From Clostridiaceae bacterium DTU079 (GTDB lineage Bacteria > Bacillota > Clostridia > Acetivibrionales > Acetivibrionaceae), in NCBI GenBank assembly GCA_001512505.1, contig LFSC01000009.1, forward strand, positions 4,201 to 68,200: a stretch of 64,000 nt of DNA. The letters run 5' to 3'. Shown piece by piece: positions 37,891 to 49,049 of this stretch. The position numbers were made by a program, and so were the translations under genes. The notes under the pieces are model-generated. The model had not been told where the DNA came from, did no database searches, and saw only the letters and a list, made by a program, of their open reading frames with translations. The stretch's first letter is position 1; each line of letters starts with the position of its first letter.

Positions 37891-38128
37891 GACATCCCTC
37901 CTATGCTAAAAACTATATGGCTTATTCCATTTGTATCTAATTATAACACATATAATAATCAAGTAGCCAATTGAAAGTTCGGTTTATTTTGCGGACCCAT
38001 TATATATAATACACTATATACCGTCATAAATAAACCACATCATTTTTCAAATGTGCATAATTAATACGAAGAAAAATACGGAAGAAAATTATGTCATAAA
38101 GTCCGAAGCCCGTAAATACGGCACACCT

Positions 38129-38498: not shown

Positions 38499-38545
38499 TG
38501 AAGAAAAATATAGAAGAAACCACGCTTCCTCTATATTTTTCTTCA
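38499..38545 (-). terminator. 20-bp AT-rich hairpin downstream of sigG (copy C of the GAAGAAAAATAT hairpin family), probable terminator
   Basis: Arms TGAAGAAAAATATAGAAGAA (38499-38518) and TTCCTCTATATTTTTCTTCA (38526-38545) with 1 mismatch and a 7-nt loop. On the minus strand it is followed by ATATTTGTTTATT. Lies 38 nt after the sigG stop. Confidence 0.6.
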
Positions 38546-38582: not shown

Positions 38583-39356
38583 TTATATATATTTTCTCAT
38601 ATGCATCAGAGCAGTCTTTTCCAGTCTTGAAACCTGAGCCTGGGAGATTCCGATTTCTTCAGCAACCTCCATTTGAGTTCTGCCGTCAAAGAAGCGAAGG
38701 TTTAGAATAAGTTTCTCCCTGTCGTTTAACTTTCTCATGGCTTCATTAAGTGCAATGCCCTCCAACCAGTTTTCATCGGTATTCTTATCGTCTTTAACCT
38801 GATCCATAACATAAATTGCATCTCCCCCATCATGATACACGGACTCAAACAGCGATATGGGGTCTTGGATTGCATCGAGGGCAAAAACCACATCTTCCTT
38901 TGGAATACCGAGTTCTTTAGCTATCTCTTCCACCGTAGGTTCCTTTGAGTTCATATTTGTCAGCTTTTCCTTTGCCTGAAGGGCCTTGTACGCAATATCC
39001 CTCAGGGATCGGCTTACACGAATGGAGTTGTTGTCACGAAGATATCTCCTAATTTCCCCTATAATCATAGGAACAGCATATGTTGAAAATTTAACGTTTT
39101 GGGACAAATCAAAGTTGTCAATTGCCTTAATAAGGCCAATACAACCCACCTGAAAAAGGTCATCAACGTATTCTCCCCTGTTGTTAAATCTTTGAATAAC
39201 ACTCAATACAAGCCTCAAATTTCCCTTTATGAATTCCTCTCTTGCCGAGGTATCTCCATTATGCATTCTTTCAAAGAGAGCCTTTTTTTGTTCATTAGTA
39301 AGTACTGGCAATTTCGATGTGTTTACACCACATATTTCAACTTTATTGATTAGCAT
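38583..39356 (-). CDS. sigG: Sporulation sigma factor SigG
   Basis: 257-aa ORF nearly collinear with B. subtilis SigG as I recall it (NKVEICGVNTSKLPVL ... GNLRLVLSVIQRFNNRGEYVDDLFQVGCIGL ... VKFSTYAVPMIIGEIRRYLRDNN). Confidence 0.96.
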   Translation of the reverse strand: MLINKVEICGVNTSKLPVLTNEQKKALFERMHNGDTSAREEFIKGNLRLVLSVIQRFNNRGEYVDDLFQVGCIGLIKAIDNFDLSQNVKFSTYAVPMIIGEIRRYLRDNNSIRVSRSLRDIAYKALQAKEKLTNMNSKEPTVEEIAKELGIPKEDVVFALDAIQDPISLFESVYHDGGDAIYVMDQVKDDKNTDENWLEGIALNEAMRKLNDREKLILNLRFFDGRTQMEVAEEIGISQAQVSRLEKTALMHMRKYI

Positions 39357-39511: not shown

Positions 39512-40246
39512 TCATGTCATTTTGCTTATTTCCTTTCTTAACCTGCTTATAATCTTTTTTTCAAGTCTTGATATATATGATTGGGAAATACCGAGCATGT
39601 CGGCAACTTCCTTCTGTGTTTTCTCAATCCCGCCGTTTGTAAGCCCAAAGCGAAGCTCCATTATTTTCTTCTCACGCACCGAGAGCTTTTTCATAGCTGT
39701 GCTAAGAAGCTCTCTATCCACTTCATCCTCAATACTTCTTTGAATAAGGTCATTTTCTGTCCCAAGAATATCTGAAAGAAGCAATTCATTACCGTCCCAA
39801 TCGACGTTTAGAGGCTCATCTATTGAAATCTCCGTCTTCATACGGTTATTTCTTCTTAGATACATCAATATTTCATTTTCAATGCATCTTGATGCATATG
39901 TAGCAAGCTTAATGTTTTTACTTGGGTTAAACGTATTTATGGCCTTAATTAACCCAATTGTACCTATGGAAATGAGATCCTCGACCCCCACTCCCGTATT
40001 TTCAAATTTTCTTGCGATATATACTACTAACCTTAAATTTCTTTCTATCAAAATTGACTTTACCCCATAATCTCTCTTCTCCAACTTATTTAGTAGATAG
40101 TTCTCTTCATCGTTACTCAGCGGCGGCGGCAAGGCTTCACTTCCTCCGATATAGTAAACGGGAGATTTATCGTAAAGTCCAAGCTTTCCCAACACATTAA
40201 TATACTTAATCATCAAAAAAAGTTTAAGCTTCTTAAAAACAAACAT
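39512..40246 (-). CDS. sigE: Sporulation sigma factor SigE (pro-sigma-E)
   Basis: 244-aa ORF with a pro-sequence ([20 protein letters not shown]) followed by [18 protein letters not shown], as in B. subtilis pro-sigma-E. Confidence 0.96.
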
Positions 40247-40324: not shown

Positions 40325-41218
40325 CTAAACCAATTCAGGACTTAAAAGCGCATTATAATTATTGTTTTTGGATAATGCCCTGTTGTAAATTCCTATGATC
40401 ACGTCTGTAACCCCCTTCTTTTCAGTATTTTCACCCACCTCAATATAATCGGGCTTAAATCCGATTAACATCCCGTTTTCTTTGCCCAAGGATTTAAACG
40501 GAATAAGTCTGAATCTCGACAACCAACTGGAGCCTGACACTATTTGAGTTACGCTGTTGAGGTCGTCTTCAATTGATTTATCAAAAATGCTCTGTATTTC
40601 CCTGGGCAATATATGTTTAATGGCATTAAACTCTACAACCACAACCGGTGAGTTGGTTAAAGGATCGTAAAGGGAGTTACCGGTATCAATCAGAGCCGAC
40701 AGATCGGTTATTTCATTTTCAAAAGCCACTTTCAAAGGTATTAAAAGCTTTTCCTTGGAAAGCCTTTGCTGAACTATATCCCAGAAAACCCTTATTATAA
40801 TGCCCGCTGTTAAAATTGCAAAAAGCAGAGAGGTCCATTTGGAATTCCACACATACACAATTCCGTTTTTTACAAATCCCCCTGTTTGATTAAAATAAAA
40901 AAACGCAAAGGCAGCACCGGCAAATATAAAAGTTGAGACATAAAATGTCACCAGAGTTCTGATAAAAGGTATCAATTTTCCGGGAGAAAAAGCAATAGCC
41001 ACAATCAAGAATGACAAAGCTATTTTCGCAGTAGTACTATAGTAAACCTTGATATTTGGAAACAACAGCAGGATTACTACATACAGAGCACCTATCAGAG
41101 ACGCTAAAAGCAACTTTAAATGAGATGTCTTATTCTTTGAAAATTTAGCTGTCAGCAACAATATAAGATAGTTAATAACTACATTTTCCAGAACTAAAAC
41201 ATCAACATATATTTTCAT
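40325..41218 (-). CDS. spoIIGA: Sigma-E processing peptidase SpoIIGA
   Basis: The ORF track gives 40325..41266. I prefer the ATG at 41218 (MKIYVDVLVLEN) with GGAGGCGGC upstream. Five TM helices and the aspartic protease motif LIDTGNSLYDPLT. Confidence 0.93.
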   Translation of the reverse strand: MKIYVDVLVLENVVINYLILLLTAKFSKNKTSHLKLLLASLIGALYVVILLLFPNIKVYYSTTAKIALSFLIVAIAFSPGKLIPFIRTLVTFYVSTFIFAGAAFAFFYFNQTGGFVKNGIVYVWNSKWTSLLFAILTAGIIIRVFWDIVQQRLSKEKLLIPLKVAFENEITDLSALIDTGNSLYDPLTNSPVVVVEFNAIKHILPREIQSIFDKSIEDDLNSVTQIVSGSSWLSRFRLIPFKSLGKENGMLIGFKPDYIEVGENTEKKGVTDVIIGIYNRALSKNNNYNALLSPELV

Positions 41219-41310
41219 TCTGCCGCCTCCTAAAAAACCGCAAATTAATGAATGCTCCCACCACAAGAAAATATCCTAAATAACATATATGCAAAAGCAT
41301 GTTTGATTAT

Positions 41311-41335
41311 TATTGATTTAACTAAGTTAAATCAA
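41311..41335. promoter_or_regulatory. Perfect 25-bp palindrome in the predicted spoIIG leader
   Basis: ATTGATTTAAC-TAA-GTTAAATCAAT: 11-bp arms with a 3-nt centre. Located between the candidate -10 (41357-41352) and the spoIIGA start. Confidence 0.5.
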
Positions 41336-41351
41336 TATTTATTTATTTTTG

Positions 41352-41384
41352 ATTATACAAATAAATAAATATTTATTTTGTCAA
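41352..41384 (-). promoter_or_regulatory. Candidate spoIIG promoter: consensus -35 and -10 hexamers separated by an over-long 21-nt spacer
   Basis: Minus strand reads TTGACA (41384-41379), a 21-nt spacer, then TATAAT (41357-41352). The 0A-box-like heptamers TGTCAAA (41379-41385, plus strand) and TGACAAA (41412-41418) overlap or lie upstream. B. subtilis spoIIG has the same design (22-bp spacer, Spo0A-P dependent). Confidence 0.55.
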
Positions 41385-41445
41385 ACCTCAGTGTAGAAAA
41401 AAAAAATCGTGTGACAAAATCAATGGAGTTTTTTAGGGGAGGGGG

Positions 41446-41614
41446 AAGTTGAGAAAAATATTCCAGAAACTTGAGTTTCGCAGTCTAGAGCCTGTAAATA
41501 CTCTTCGGGGTCGAGCAAAACTCGCTTTGCTCAGACAATGCTCTCCCTTTCCTCGTCGTATTAACAGGCTCTACGCCTGGCTTCACAACGTTTCTTCCAT
41601 ATTTTTCTTAACTT
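41446..41614. repeat. About 170-nt imperfect palindrome / rod-like structured element (copy A of the hairpin family); MITE-like element or structured ncRNA, strand unresolved
   Basis: Outer arms 41446-41470 and 41590-41614 pair at 22/25 positions. Inner perfect 10-bp helix TAGAGCCTGT (41486-41495) / ACAGGCTCTA (41564-41573). The apex has ACTC-TTCG-GGGT (41500-41511) and GAGCAAA-N6-TTTGCTC (41513-41532). The interior is more GC-rich than the flanks. Confidence 0.6.
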
Positions 41615-41669
41615 GTCACCAGTTCAGGTAGGTATATAAAGATTAATATACTTCTTAGATAATAAAAAA

Positions 41670-41699
41670 AGTGTAAGGGTATACAACAATATTACACTC
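41670..41699 (-). terminator. Probable ftsZ terminator
   Basis: AGTGTAA (41670-41676) pairs with TTACACT (41693-41699). On the minus strand the stem is followed by T7. Lies 45 nt downstream of the ftsZ stop. The loop is rather large (16 nt). Confidence 0.5.
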
Positions 41700-41743
41700 T
41701 CACACTTTTCTCACCTTTATTAATTTATTTTATAATTCAATAA

Positions 41744-42838
41744 TTATTTAAATCTGTTTCTCCTTAAGAAGGTTGGTATTTCCAACTCATCCGATGATGA
41801 CTGTACGGAAGGAGCTGTTTTTTCCGGAGCTGATACAGTAGGCTTTTCGCTAACAGCAGGCTTGTCAATTTTCTTCACAATAGGAGATTTGTCAAAACCT
41901 GTAGCAATTACAGTGATCAAAATCTCATCCTTGAGATTTTCATCAATAACCGCTCCAAAGATAATATTAGCATCGGGATCAGCGGATTTCTGTACCAGTT
42001 CCGCTGCCGTGTTGACCTCAAACAGTCCAAGATCTGCACCGCCGGTAATGTTGAGAAGAACTCCTCTTGCTCCGTCTATGGAAGTCTCCAAAAGCGGGCT
42101 CTGAATTGCCTGTTTTGCAGCCTCTTCTGCCCTGTTCTCGCCGGATGCACGTCCGATACCCATGTGGGCCAGACCGGTATCCAACATAATTGTCTTGACG
42201 TCGGCAAAGTCTAGGTTTACAAGACCAGGCACAGCAATCAGATCCGATATTCCCTGTACACCCTGCCTTAGCACATTATCAGCGATCTTAAAGGCATCAA
42301 CAATGGAAGTCTTCTTTTCTGCCACCTGAAGCAGTCTATCATTAGGTATTGTAACCAGAGTATCAACAGTGCTTTTCAATGCCTCTATTCCTCTCTCGGC
42401 ATGCTGCATCCTTTTTCTTCCTTCAAACATAAAGGGTTTTGTCACAACACCTACAGTTAAAATTCCCATTTCCTTTGCAATTTGCGCAACCACCGGAGCA
42501 GCTCCCGTTCCTGTTCCTCCGCCCATACCGGCAGTTACAAAAACCATATCTGCACCCTTAATTGCCTGGGCTATCTCATCCTTGCTCTCGTTAGCCGCCT
42601 TCTCACCGATTTCAGGGTTGGCTCCTGCTCCAAGTCCCTTTGTCAGCTTATCCCCAATTTGGATTTTAGTATTTGCTTTTGATAAAAACAAAGCCTGTTT
42701 ATCTGTATTTATCGCTATAAATTCCACACCACGCAAACCTGCAGTTATCATTCTATTAACAGCATTATTTCCTCCGCCACCAACACCTATAACTCTTATC
42801 TGGGCAAACTGTTCCATATCGATATCAAACTCCAGCAC
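41744..42838 (-). CDS. ftsZ: Cell division GTPase FtsZ
   Basis: The ORF track gives 41744..42874 (TTG start). I prefer the GTG at 42838 ([31 protein letters not shown], matching the Bacillus FtsZ N-terminus) with GGGGGA 6 nt upstream. Tubulin signature [10 protein letters not shown] present. Confidence 0.96.
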
Positions 42839-43124
42839 TTTAAATCCCCCTTTTTTTTCATTGGTAACAACCAACCGTTAATTACATCACTTCTATACTG
42901 ATTTTCAAGATATTGTCCAAAATTAAATACATGTTAACAATCATTCTCTCAATAATTAATAATATATTAATATTAAAGATTTCGCAAGAACGTATTTCGG
43001 GTATTTAATCCGCTACTTGAAATCTAAAATATACATCGGTAAGATTGAAAAAACAATTACATATAATTTATATAATTATACTCAATTAAAATAAATATGC
43101 GTTTCGAAAAAAAGAATTAAAATG

Positions 43125-44354
43125 TCAAAATAAACCGTTGAAGAGACTGGCTATTTTCTTTAGAATTCCAAACTCCTTTTTTTGCCTGTTTGGTTTTGAG
43201 CTTTTTGTGTCTTTTCTTCCTGACTTCATCCGTTCTGCAACATACCTTAAAATAGCAATTGAAGTCAGATACTCGGGGTTTGCAATGCCCAGAGACTTAT
43301 AGGCTACCAACCTGACAGGTAAATTAAAAACTTCCTTTGCCAACTCTACACTGCCATCCATATATGAAATACCGGCTCCGGCAAGAACAATCTCTCCGCT
43401 GAAATCCTTAAATTCGCCGGTTTCTTCAAGTTTTTCCTTGCAAAGCAAAAATATTTCCTGAATTCTAGCTTCTATTATCTCAACCACCTGTGAAACTTTA
43501 ATTGTTTTTCTGGTATTTCCGTCAAGTTCATTAACAGTTATTTCATGATCATTGCTAATAAGCGAAGTAAGAGCCAAGCTATATTCTCTCTTAAGTTTTT
43601 CCGCATCACTTGACGATATTCGAAGACCTATGGAAATATCATTTGTAATATGATCCCCTCCCACAGGTATGGAATCATACAATACTATGCTCTTGTTTTT
43701 GAATACCGATACATTTGTAACTCCACCGCCAATATCGATAAGAACTGCTCCCATCTCTTTTTCATCAAAAGTCAAAGCAGTTTCTCCCAGCGCAAGAGCT
43801 TCAGCAATAAAACCGTCAATAGTAACATTGGCCTTTTCCAAACTTTTTACAATATTGTTAAATGTTGTTATTTTCCCGACAACAACATCCGATTCCACTT
43901 CAAGCTTTACTCCTGCCATACCAAGAGGATCAATAATTCCGTCACATCCATCCACTATATACTGTCTTGGGACTATATCAATAATCCGGAGGTCTTCAGG
44001 AAGTTTAACGTCTTCAACCTTTTTAAGAACCCTTTCAATATCCCCCGATGTTATTTCATGATCCTGCCTTAAAACATCTACAGAACTTTTAAAATAGAAT
44101 AAGTCGACATGTAATCCCATAACATTTACATAAGCAGATTCTATGCTTATATTTGTCAGAGCCTTCAGTTTTTGAACGCAGCTTCTCACTGCATCCGAAA
44201 CGGAGTCAATATCGACAATTACCCCTTTTTTCACTCCGCTGCAAGGCTCAATAGCCTTCCCCAATATTTCCACATTGCCCAATTCGCTCAATCTTGCAAC
44301 AAAAGCACAAACCTTGGATGTTCCTATATCAATACAACTAATTATATCCTCCAC
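43125..44354 (-). CDS. ftsA: Cell division protein FtsA
   Basis: 409-aa actin-like ATPase (IDIGTSKVCAFVA ... LIDIGGGVTNVSVF) with a C-terminal amphipathic helix (ILKKIASLFNGLF). Confidence 0.95.
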   Translation of the reverse strand: MEDIISCIDIGTSKVCAFVARLSELGNVEILGKAIEPCSGVKKGVIVDIDSVSDAVRSCVQKLKALTNISIESAYVNVMGLHVDLFYFKSSVDVLRQDHEITSGDIERVLKKVEDVKLPEDLRIIDIVPRQYIVDGCDGIIDPLGMAGVKLEVESDVVVGKITTFNNIVKSLEKANVTIDGFIAEALALGETALTFDEKEMGAVLIDIGGGVTNVSVFKNKSIVLYDSIPVGGDHITNDISIGLRISSSDAEKLKREYSLALTSLISNDHEITVNELDGNTRKTIKVSQVVEIIEARIQEIFLLCKEKLEETGEFKDFSGEIVLAGAGISYMDGSVELAKEVFNLPVRLVAYKSLGIANPEYLTSIAILRYVAERMKSGRKDTKSSKPNRQKKEFGILKKIASLFNGLF

Positions 44355-48167: not shown

Positions 48168-48914
48168 ATGTATGAATTAAATATATGTCATCTTTATCCC
48201 GATCTTTTGAACCTGTATGGCGACCGGGGAAATATAATAGCATTGAAGAGACGATGTGAATGGCGAGGAATAAACGTCAACGTCTCGAACATTTCCATCG
48301 GTGACAATTTCGATGCGGAAAGCTATGACATTATTTTTTTAGGTGGTGGCCAGAATTATGAGCAGGAAATACTTCATGATGATGTTATAAATCAAAAGGG
48401 AAATGAAATCCGAAACGCCATAAACAATAACAAGGTATTTTTAGCCGTCTGCGGTGGATATCAGCTCCTCGGAAAATACTATAAAACTTGGGACGGTAAA
48501 GAGATACAATTTTTAGATGCCGTGGATTTTTGGACAATTGGCGATAAAAAAAGAATGATCGGAGATTTTGTCTTTGAATGCGATTTTCTTAAGGAAAACG
48601 GCTTTGACGGAAAAGTTGTGGGCTTTGAAAATCATTCCGGCAGAACCTATTTAGGTCCAAATGTAAAACCCTTGGGCAAAATCATAAAGGGATACGGCAA
48701 CAATGGAAAGGATGGCTTTGAGGGAGCATTATATAAAAACGTTTACTGCACTTACTCCCATGGAAGTCTTCTTCCGAAGAATCCTGCTTTTGCAGATCAC
48801 CTTATAGCACTGTCATTAAAGCAAAAGTATAAGGATTTCGTGTCTCTTTCTTATCTCAATGACGAATTTGAGGAACTGGCCAACCGAACAATGATTAAAA
48901 GAATCATTGGATGA
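48168..48914 (+). CDS. gatD: Lipid II isoglutaminyl synthase glutaminase subunit GatD (CobQ-type GATase)
   Basis: 248-aa ORF starting 1 nt after the murT stop. Motifs: HLYPDLLNLYGDRGN, nucleophile Cys in LAVCGGYQLLG, GFENHSGRT. Confidence 0.92.
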   Translation: MYELNICHLYPDLLNLYGDRGNIIALKRRCEWRGINVNVSNISIGDNFDAESYDIIFLGGGQNYEQEILHDDVINQKGNEIRNAINNNKVFLAVCGGYQLLGKYYKTWDGKEIQFLDAVDFWTIGDKKRMIGDFVFECDFLKENGFDGKVVGFENHSGRTYLGPNVKPLGKIIKGYGNNGKDGFEGALYKNVYCTYSHGSLLPKNPAFADHLIALSLKQKYKDFVSLSYLNDEFEELANRTMIKRIIG

Positions 48915-48925
48915 TCAAAGCTATA

Positions 48926-48987
48926 AGTGAAGAAAAATATTTCAGAAACTAAAGTTTTACAATGTTTCTTTCATATTTTTCTTCACT
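48926..48987 (+). terminator. Long hairpin after gatD (copy B of the GAAGAAAAATAT hairpin family), probable terminator
   Basis: Arms AGTGAAGAAAAATATTTCAGAAAC (48926-48949) and GTTTCTTTCATATTTTTCTTCACT (48964-48987): 15 bp, a 3x3 internal loop (TTC/TTC), then 6 bp. 14-nt loop, followed by TTTTATAAT. Confidence 0.65.
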
Positions 48988-49049
48988 TTTATAATGTACC
49001 AATTAACAATATAGAATTTTTAACAGCAGATACCTAATGAACATAAAAT

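Follow-up and report, generated by a model that had tools for sequence, protein, structure and literature searches.

A putative full-length copy of a palindromic dispersed repeat family between ftsZ and spoIIGA of an Acetivibrio-like clostridium

MITEs are defined as small elements (<~400 bp) that carry no transposase gene (PMC3184786). ERIC/IRU of the Enterobacteriaceae, an imperfect palindrome of ~127 bp belonging to the MITE class, is often located at the 3' ends of genes and co-transcribed, and its copies reveal TA-flanked termini and target duplications (PMC3184786). The Correia elements of Neisseria (CREE/NEMIS) are intergenic, display terminal inverted repeats of ~26 bp, form an RNA hairpin and occur in two size classes, namely full-length (~155 bp) and internally deleted (~105 bp) (PMC3184786). 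REP/BIME, described as a 20-40-nt G+C-rich palindrome, are often clustered and associated with RAYT, a Y1 transposase (PMC3184786), and in the Firmicutes, SPRITE and RUP of Streptococcus pneumoniae are known as intergenic repeats, SPRITE being similar to a Rho-independent terminator (PMC3184786). A literature search unveiled no description of the repeat family reported here in Acetivibrio, Herbivorax or C. thermocellum.

Here, we have analysed a window of 64,000 nucleotides, i.e., the whole stretch under study from contig LFSC01000009.1 of Clostridiaceae bacterium DTU079, to which all coordinates without a contig handle refer. Between ftsZ and spoIIGA, an earlier note on this DNA had described an imperfect palindrome of ~170 nt at 41446-41614 that no gene, terminator or promoter explained, and had considered a dispersed repeat, which it favoured, next to a structured RNA. 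According to our analysis, this segment is probably a full-length copy of a ~170-bp non-coding palindromic dispersed repeat that is MITE/ERIC-like and restricted to one lineage; in this reading, it is ordinary selfish or terminator-like DNA rather than a new regulatory RNA. The features at the locus are the following, with the strand given where one applies:

41446-41614, either strand: putative complete unit (~169 nt) of the repeat, palindromic and dispersed, which forms a rod-like hairpin from both strands, based on folds and homologous full-length copies
41446-41470: left outer arm AAGTTGAGAAAAATATTCCAGAAAC, terminal inverted repeat, 26% G+C, pairing with 41590-41614 at 22 of 25 positions
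41590-41614: right outer arm GTTTCTTCCATATTTTTCTTAACTT, terminal inverted repeat, based on pairing and the family alignment
41486-41495: left half TAGAGCCTGT of a 10-bp G+C-rich helix, perfectly paired, an orphan half-stem in the short form of the sister species
41564-41573: right half ACAGGCTCTA of the 10-bp helix, invariant in four of four full copies
41497-41562: apical domain, where conservation within the family is highest (~90% pairwise identity in the alignment of full copies)
41495-41579: 85 nt missing from the orthologous element in L005 and L004, based on the spacer and family alignments
~41661-41715, - strand: terminator-like hairpin of ftsZ with a U-run, outside the repeat (fold z = -6.4), with an equivalent hairpin in L005
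41352-41419, - strand: conserved spoIIG promoter, outside the repeat, kept in ~12 relatives with or without the repeat

The unit consists of A+T-rich terminal inverted repeats of 25 nt, a middle stem that varies and yet is always paired, the invariant 10-bp G+C-rich helix and the conserved apex. Its terminal sequence reads GTGAAGAAAAATAT..., and the outer arms form 21 Watson-Crick pairs and one G-T pair around a 3x3 internal loop reading TCC on both sides. The apical domain is composed of an AATAC/GTATT stem, a GGG..GAGCA/TGCTC..CCC stem and a variable tetraloop (UUCG, CGUG, CUCA or CUCG), with the hairpins ACTC-TTCG-GGGT (41500-41511) and GAGCAAA-N6-TTTGCTC (41513-41532) present in the window copy. 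The folding energy of a 201-nt segment was -66.9 kcal/mol (+ strand) and -64.7 kcal/mol (- strand), compared with about -46 +/- 4 kcal/mol for shuffled controls (z = -5.0 and -5.2), and none of 200 shuffles was as stable. The interior has a G+C content of 50%, the arms of 26% and the flanks of 25-28%; this contrast between interior and flanks, already remarked upon, held up, as did every other sequence detail given for the palindrome when checked against the sequence.

All genes around the element are encoded on the - strand, namely ftsA (43125-44354), ftsZ (41744-42874), spoIIGA (40325-41218), sigE (39512-40246) and sigG (38583-39356). Because of this orientation, the element lies downstream of ftsZ, whose stop is at 41744, and also downstream of the ftsZ terminator hairpin; the description in the earlier note has to be corrected in this respect. 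The promoter is made up of a TTTTGTCACA box (41410-41419), TTGACA (41379-41384), a 21-nt spacer and TATAAT (41352-41357). From the end of the element, it is 26 nt to the distal Spo0A-type box, on its upstream side, and ~60 nt to the -35 box of this conserved promoter. Judging by relatives of its SpoIIGA protein, the organism belongs to the uncultured Acetivibrio/Herbivorax-like clostridia (Acetivibrionales) from anaerobic digesters, and many biogas metagenome assemblies contain an identical SpoIIGA.

Some further features of this spacer were recorded. A G-run GGGGAGGGGG (on the gene strand: CCCCCTCCCC) at 41431-41445 lies flush against the element on its left side; L004 and L005 have a comparable run, GGTAGGGGAGA, and none was seen beside repeat copies at other loci. 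Directly downstream of the spoIIG -10 box, the window carries a 36-nt insertion (41319-41354) with an AATCAA direct repeat at its bounds, which was found in no relative examined, while L009, L011, L014 and L016 display different insertions at the same spot; it generates the palindrome ATTGATTTAAC-TAA-GTTAAATCAAT (hairpin 41305-41329) at about the transcription start. A leader box AAACATGCTTTTGCATATATGTTATTTAGGATA (41272-41304, - strand), including an ATGC-TTTT-GCAT palindrome, is located between the spoIIG promoter and the start of spoIIGA; it is kept in nearly all Acetivibrionales loci inspected and may serve as an operator or as part of a leader RNA. In L009 (1930-2230) and L011 (740-1030), the ftsZ-spoIIGA spacer contains a small ORF on the reverse strand, with AGGAGG as its ribosome-binding site, which accounts for spacers of more than 600 nt in these two.

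A metagenome scan with an exact 34-mer from the interior matched only the same locus in L047, a 98.7%-identical strain, and was judged too narrow to reveal a family. Copies were instead recovered via a protein-database search with translations of the element from both strands, followed by inspection of the source contigs of the mis-called ORFs. Together with an nhmmer family profile and homologous arms, this unveiled the following members:

L048:5025-5192: full-length copy in the cvpA/ilvD spacer (nhmmer)
L049:1257-1424: full-length copy at the 3' end of an anti-sigma gene (nhmmer)
L051:8062-8229, equal to L052: full-length copy between the convergent nucleotidyltransferase (NTase) and RNase J genes (nhmmer)
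L049:1431-1507 and L050:43-130: truncated copies
L051:13854-13885: solo arm
38066-38122, - strand: remnant of a long-form copy, namely its right half in degraded form (helix, right arm and part of the apex; nhmmer, model positions 116-173), directly after the stop of a PRC-barrel gene
48925-48988: short member with homologous arms and a 14-nt loop, followed by TTTT, between convergent genes, 11 nt past the stop of a GATase_3 gene (48168-48914, + strand)
38499-38545: short member with homologous arms, a 22-bp hairpin that begins 38 nt past the stop of sigG (38583, - strand)
L049:2032-2083: short form, a minimal hairpin

The whole unit of ~170 nt, and not its arms alone, thus recurs at unrelated intergenic loci: the family profile matched the full copies with E-values of 1e-57 to 1e-60, and the interiors of the full-length copies, situated on other metagenome contigs, are ~90% identical. 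Altogether, the family comprises four full-length loci, two truncated copies, one degraded half, one solo arm and at least six short forms, the latter with differing internal breakpoints (48925-48988, 38499-38545, L049:2032-2083, L005, L004 and L025). Eight of the nine copies of known context are located within ~130 nt downstream of a stop codon. The orientation of copies relative to neighbouring genes varies. The copy at 38066-38122 was detected only with the nhmmer profile, a search of the window with the interior having returned nothing except 41446-41614 itself. The dispersed family that the earlier note had preferred, including the two shorter hairpins with homologous arms that it had seen in the window, is therefore borne out by full-length, truncated and short relatives.

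Outside these contigs, no added copies were detected in a further 8 kb of the same genome past the left window end, nor did a sample of ~80 kb from the surroundings of RNase J in A. thermocellus, A. mesophilus and the related metagenome contigs L059 and L060 contain any family member. Viral contigs scanned with a conserved 20-mer and the arm motif gave no matches, and blastn against plasmid and phage collections did not match the repeat. The family appears to be confined to a narrow lineage of uncultured cellulose-degrading Acetivibrio/Herbivorax-like clostridia from biogas digesters. Arm matches in Pseudobacteroides (L036 and L038) proved to be A+T-rich chance matches with no palindrome, and the proteins P0003 and P0004 were dropped from the family as unrelated low-complexity matches.

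Across the four full copies, 96% of the stem cells are paired, and seven of the 54 stem pairs were changed on both sides. Shuffles gave a mean of 2.5 such pairs, with one of 500 reaching seven, and slid controls showed zero or one. These compensatory changes support an upkeep of the palindrome, though four sequences cannot tell DNA from RNA. As G-U cells number six on the + strand and four on the - strand, the support for the stem has no strand bias. Mean pairwise identity among the same copies amounts to ~0.80-0.81 in the outer arms, where compensatory changes also occur, 0.61-0.74 in the middle stem, 0.93-1.00 in the 10-bp helix and 0.90 in the apex. The middle stem co-varies, reading GCAAGTA/TACTTGC in L051 and GCAGTC/GACTGC in L049, and the tetraloop changes (UUCG, CGUG, CUCA, CUCG) above an unchanging stem. 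While the GAGCAAA/TTTGCTC hairpin decays in the other copies, the alternative GAGCA/TGCTC pairing is invariant. Conservation that is higher in the interior than at the termini is not typical of a MITE and is the main unexplained feature of the family; it hints at a sequence-specific role of the interior.

A scan for SpoIIGA with one genome per species yielded 43 loci. In three contigs of the same species, the spacer is identical save for one substitution and one 1-nt indel. The closest other species, L005 and L004, whose SpoIIGA is 92-93% identical, keep the arms in the same ftsZ-spoIIGA spacer and lack the 85 nt in between, the gene strand reading GAAGTCAGGC|TCTAGACTGCGGAAC across the junction. 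A GCCTG direct repeat (41490-41494 and 41575-41579) bounds these 85 nt in the window, for which reason we interpret the difference as a loss of internal sequence by the sister lineage. In L005 and L004, the short form retains GCAGTCTAGAGCCTG, the left half of the inner helix, without its partner, as an asymmetric central deletion of a palindrome leaves exactly such a remnant. A fourth species, L025 (Herbivorax sp. ANBcel31), was observed to carry a short hairpin in the same spacer (L025:2166-2236) with its loop in the opposite orientation, which may have arisen by a separate insertion or by inversion via the arms; an extra arm copy lies beside the L004 element (L004:206-341). The element is thus present at this locus in the window species, L004, L005 and L025. 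About 35 further relatives revealed no trace of it at the spoIIGA locus, their spacers measuring 177-668 nt with flanks that were not alignable, and ~12 relatives with fully read spacers display a TTTTGTCACA-type box, TTGACA, ~21 nt, TATAAT and a conserved ACATGCTTTTGCATATA leader box. Relatives that lack the element or its interior have kept the promoter, which therefore does not depend on the element.

The direct repeat around the 85 nt allows another reading of the long form, namely as a composite in which a mobile insert of ~85 nt with GCCTG as its target-site duplication entered the loop of an older terminator-like hairpin. An ‘empty’ loop ending in ...GAGCCTG, as found in three other species (L004, L005 and L025), would fit this as well. 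We nevertheless regard it as highly improbable: the arm-interior junctions are identical in four full copies at unrelated loci, the middle stem, which would span the border between insert and target, co-varies between L051 and L049, and the insert would need to bring along 10 nt perfectly complementary to the flank of its target. Moreover, L004 and L005 are closest to each other and share many derived changes, so that a single deletion in their common ancestor is enough. Shared junctions, co-varying middle stem, orphan half-stem and varied breakpoints all argue for the long form as the family unit, and from these alignments we conclude that the short hairpins presumably are deletion derivatives of it. 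Of almost negligible probability is a small basic protein encoded by a 60-aa ORF (41449-41631, + strand; TTG start after GGAGG). The frame is open in three copies and homologous ORFs were predicted by gene callers (P0001 and P0002), yet its variable columns by codon position (7:7:4) lack a third-position bias and thus do not evolve like coding sequence, its starts and ends vary among copies, it has no Pfam match, and it is antisense to every neighbouring gene at the window locus. Among 1.84 billion representatives, only three genuine related ORFs were found (P0001, P0002 and P0005), and the opposite strand of the repeat has likewise been called as an ORF (P0006). The ORFs of 36-81 aa in public protein collections, P0001 (L048:5001-5195), P0002 (L049:1230-1475), P0005 (L050:36-146) and P0006 (L051:8001-8265), are translations of the repeat from either strand and gene-calling artefacts.

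That the repeat is a multi-copy structured small RNA family or cis-acting RNA, in which rod and conserved apex would work, e.g., as a decoy for a binding protein or, within 3' UTRs, as an RNase III/processing and stability element, is distinctly unlikely. Its strong conserved fold with compensatory changes, the apex conserved at 90% with a tetraloop varying over a constant stem, and the location of copies just downstream of genes, where co-transcription would occur, are in accordance with such a role. Against it, cmscan at Rfam gathering thresholds gave no matches in the whole window, 6S (RF00013) and SRP models included; at E<=10, the region 41250-41760 revealed only sub-threshold hits to RNA-OUT (E 0.14) and SNORD101 (E 9), both outside the element, and the copies in L049 and L050 had no relevant match. 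No sigma-70 promoter or terminator consensus accounting for the element was found, both strands are equally supported, the orientation to adjacent genes is not constant, truncation or degradation has affected many copies, the sister species have lost the interior at the orthologous site, and the window copy sits behind the terminator of ftsZ itself. The 6S- or SRP-like RNA considered in the earlier note is thus not sustained. An identity of the long copy as an intrinsic (Rho-independent) terminator was rejected, as it has no U-tract after the stem, the stem base running into CCCCCTCCCC on the - strand and into GTCACC on the + strand; some short members are followed by T-runs, yet their stems are A+T-rich. 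A regulator specific to this locus, i.e., an insulator, extra terminator or upstream structure modulating Spo0A-dependent activation of spoIIG, appears very unlikely, even though the element ends so close to the distal Spo0A-type box and at least a hairpin is kept in the spacer of four species. The ~35 relatives do without it, and the ~12 inspected in detail share the same promoter architecture; the sister species lost the interior, a scan of 41150-41800 gave no terminator-like sites, and the unit is also present at unrelated loci. An effect on sporulation gene expression, which the earlier note had brought up, is accordingly improbable, the promoter and its Spo0A-type boxes being kept where the element or its interior is missing. 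Unlikely, finally, is a functional core in which the apex, conserved and G+C-rich, would have a sequence-specific role together with the invariant 10-bp helix, as RNA or as a recombinase site. If true, this core would be a recognition module for a hairpin-binding recombinase or transposase targeting gene 3' ends, or alternatively a new rod-shaped read-through RNA binding a cellular protein; the A+T-rich arms would merely be its closing stem, and the short terminator-like hairpins relics.

Returning to the dispersed repeat, which we favour, several properties agree with a MITE: a size of 169 nt with ORFs of at most 60 aa and no Pfam match, arms paired at 22 of 25 positions (z ~-5) and kept in all copies, and dispersed copies at unrelated, mostly intergenic sites. 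Like the earlier note, which found no target-site duplication at the window copy, we saw no flanking direct repeat of >=3 nt at any of nine copies, whose ends are set only by the extent of the palindrome. Old copies can lose target-site duplications. No clean empty site was recovered among ftsZ-spoIIGA relatives, at the RNase J locus, at the post-sigG site or among strains at 48925, where ten contigs of equal spacer length showed no presence/absence polymorphism. In L051, the convergent NTase and RNase J genes are separated by 383 nt (L051:7940-8322) that contain the repeat along with a conventional bidirectional terminator; in L053 (L053:4169-4174; RNase J 96% identical), the distance is only 6 nt, which corresponds to an indel of ~385 nt that is not element-sized alone. 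Given that neither a target-site duplication nor a parent transposase with matching ends was found, strict MITE membership is unproven; the label MITE-like stands insofar as it denotes a dispersed palindromic repeat. The better conserved apex (90% compared with 80% at the termini), the reverse of the usual MITE pattern, also speaks against this explanation. From the classical description of REP/BIME in PMC3184786, the repeat differs in its size of 47-169 nt and its A+T-rich arms.

We suggest that the arrival of a copy between the ftsZ terminator and the spoIIG promoter predates the split from the two closest sequenced relatives, which later would have lost the central 85 nt between the two GCCTG repeats. 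The family may spread, or may once have spread, as a non-autonomous element (MITE/ERIC/Correia-like) with an enzyme acting in trans. At the ftsZ-spoIIGA locus, the repeat most likely is a tolerated passenger, or at most would add a hairpin barrier behind the ftsZ terminator that separates the ftsZ and spoIIG transcription units. What the copies themselves reveal is a palindromic symmetry upheld by compensatory changes without strand preference, and a decay by truncation and asymmetric internal deletions into short hairpins that resemble A+T-rich terminators. This series from full unit to terminator-like hairpins is a small example of how repeats may become gene-end hairpins, and short relatives elsewhere may serve as such, e.g., after sigG, where the window species has a family member and the sister species a conventional terminator. 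At this position, L004 (L004:3170-3230) was seen to carry an unrelated G+C-rich terminator AAAAAAGAGTC...GGCTCTTTTTT in place of the hairpin at 38499-38545; downstream of sigG, synteny differs between the two species and the sequence is not alignable.

An odd, strongly structured element of 170 nt beside a key sporulation promoter can thus be explained as a passenger repeat, for which reason annotators should call it neither an sRNA nor a small protein gene; public protein sets already hold at least four spurious ORFs from the family (P0001, P0002, P0005 and P0006). It represents a previously undescribed palindromic repeat family of cellulolytic Acetivibrio-like bacteria from biogas reactors, and could be used to mark strains or lineages in metagenomes of digesters.

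In comparison with the known systems, the repeat shares with 6S and SRP RNA the rod shape, closing stem, internal loops and apical domain, but has no match to RF00013, SRP or any other Rfam model even at E<=10, is multi-copy and decaying, has no promoter or terminator, and is absent from most relatives. Its short forms at 48925-48988, 38499-38545 and L049:2032-2083 are SPRITE-like in following right after stop codons and in being followed by T-rich sequence; there is, however, no sequence similarity to SPRITE or RUP, the stems of the repeat are A+T-rich and 22-25 bp long, and its long form has a structured interior of 120 nt that SPRITE lacks. Like ERIC, the repeat is an intergenic palindrome of 100-200 bp that forms one long hairpin. 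Wilson & Sharp 2006 reportedly included shorter, internally deleted as well as longer variants in the ERIC family. Both are nevertheless unrelated in sequence and in host, the repeat belonging to a clostridial lineage, and no TA-flanked termini or target duplications of the ERIC type were seen in it. With the Correia elements, it has in common the terminal inverted repeats, the intergenic location and the hairpin, and likewise the coexistence of long and internally deleted short forms. Correia elements, for their part, duplicate a TA target and carry IHF sites and outward promoters, and the clostridial repeat differs from them in that its interior is more conserved than the termini.
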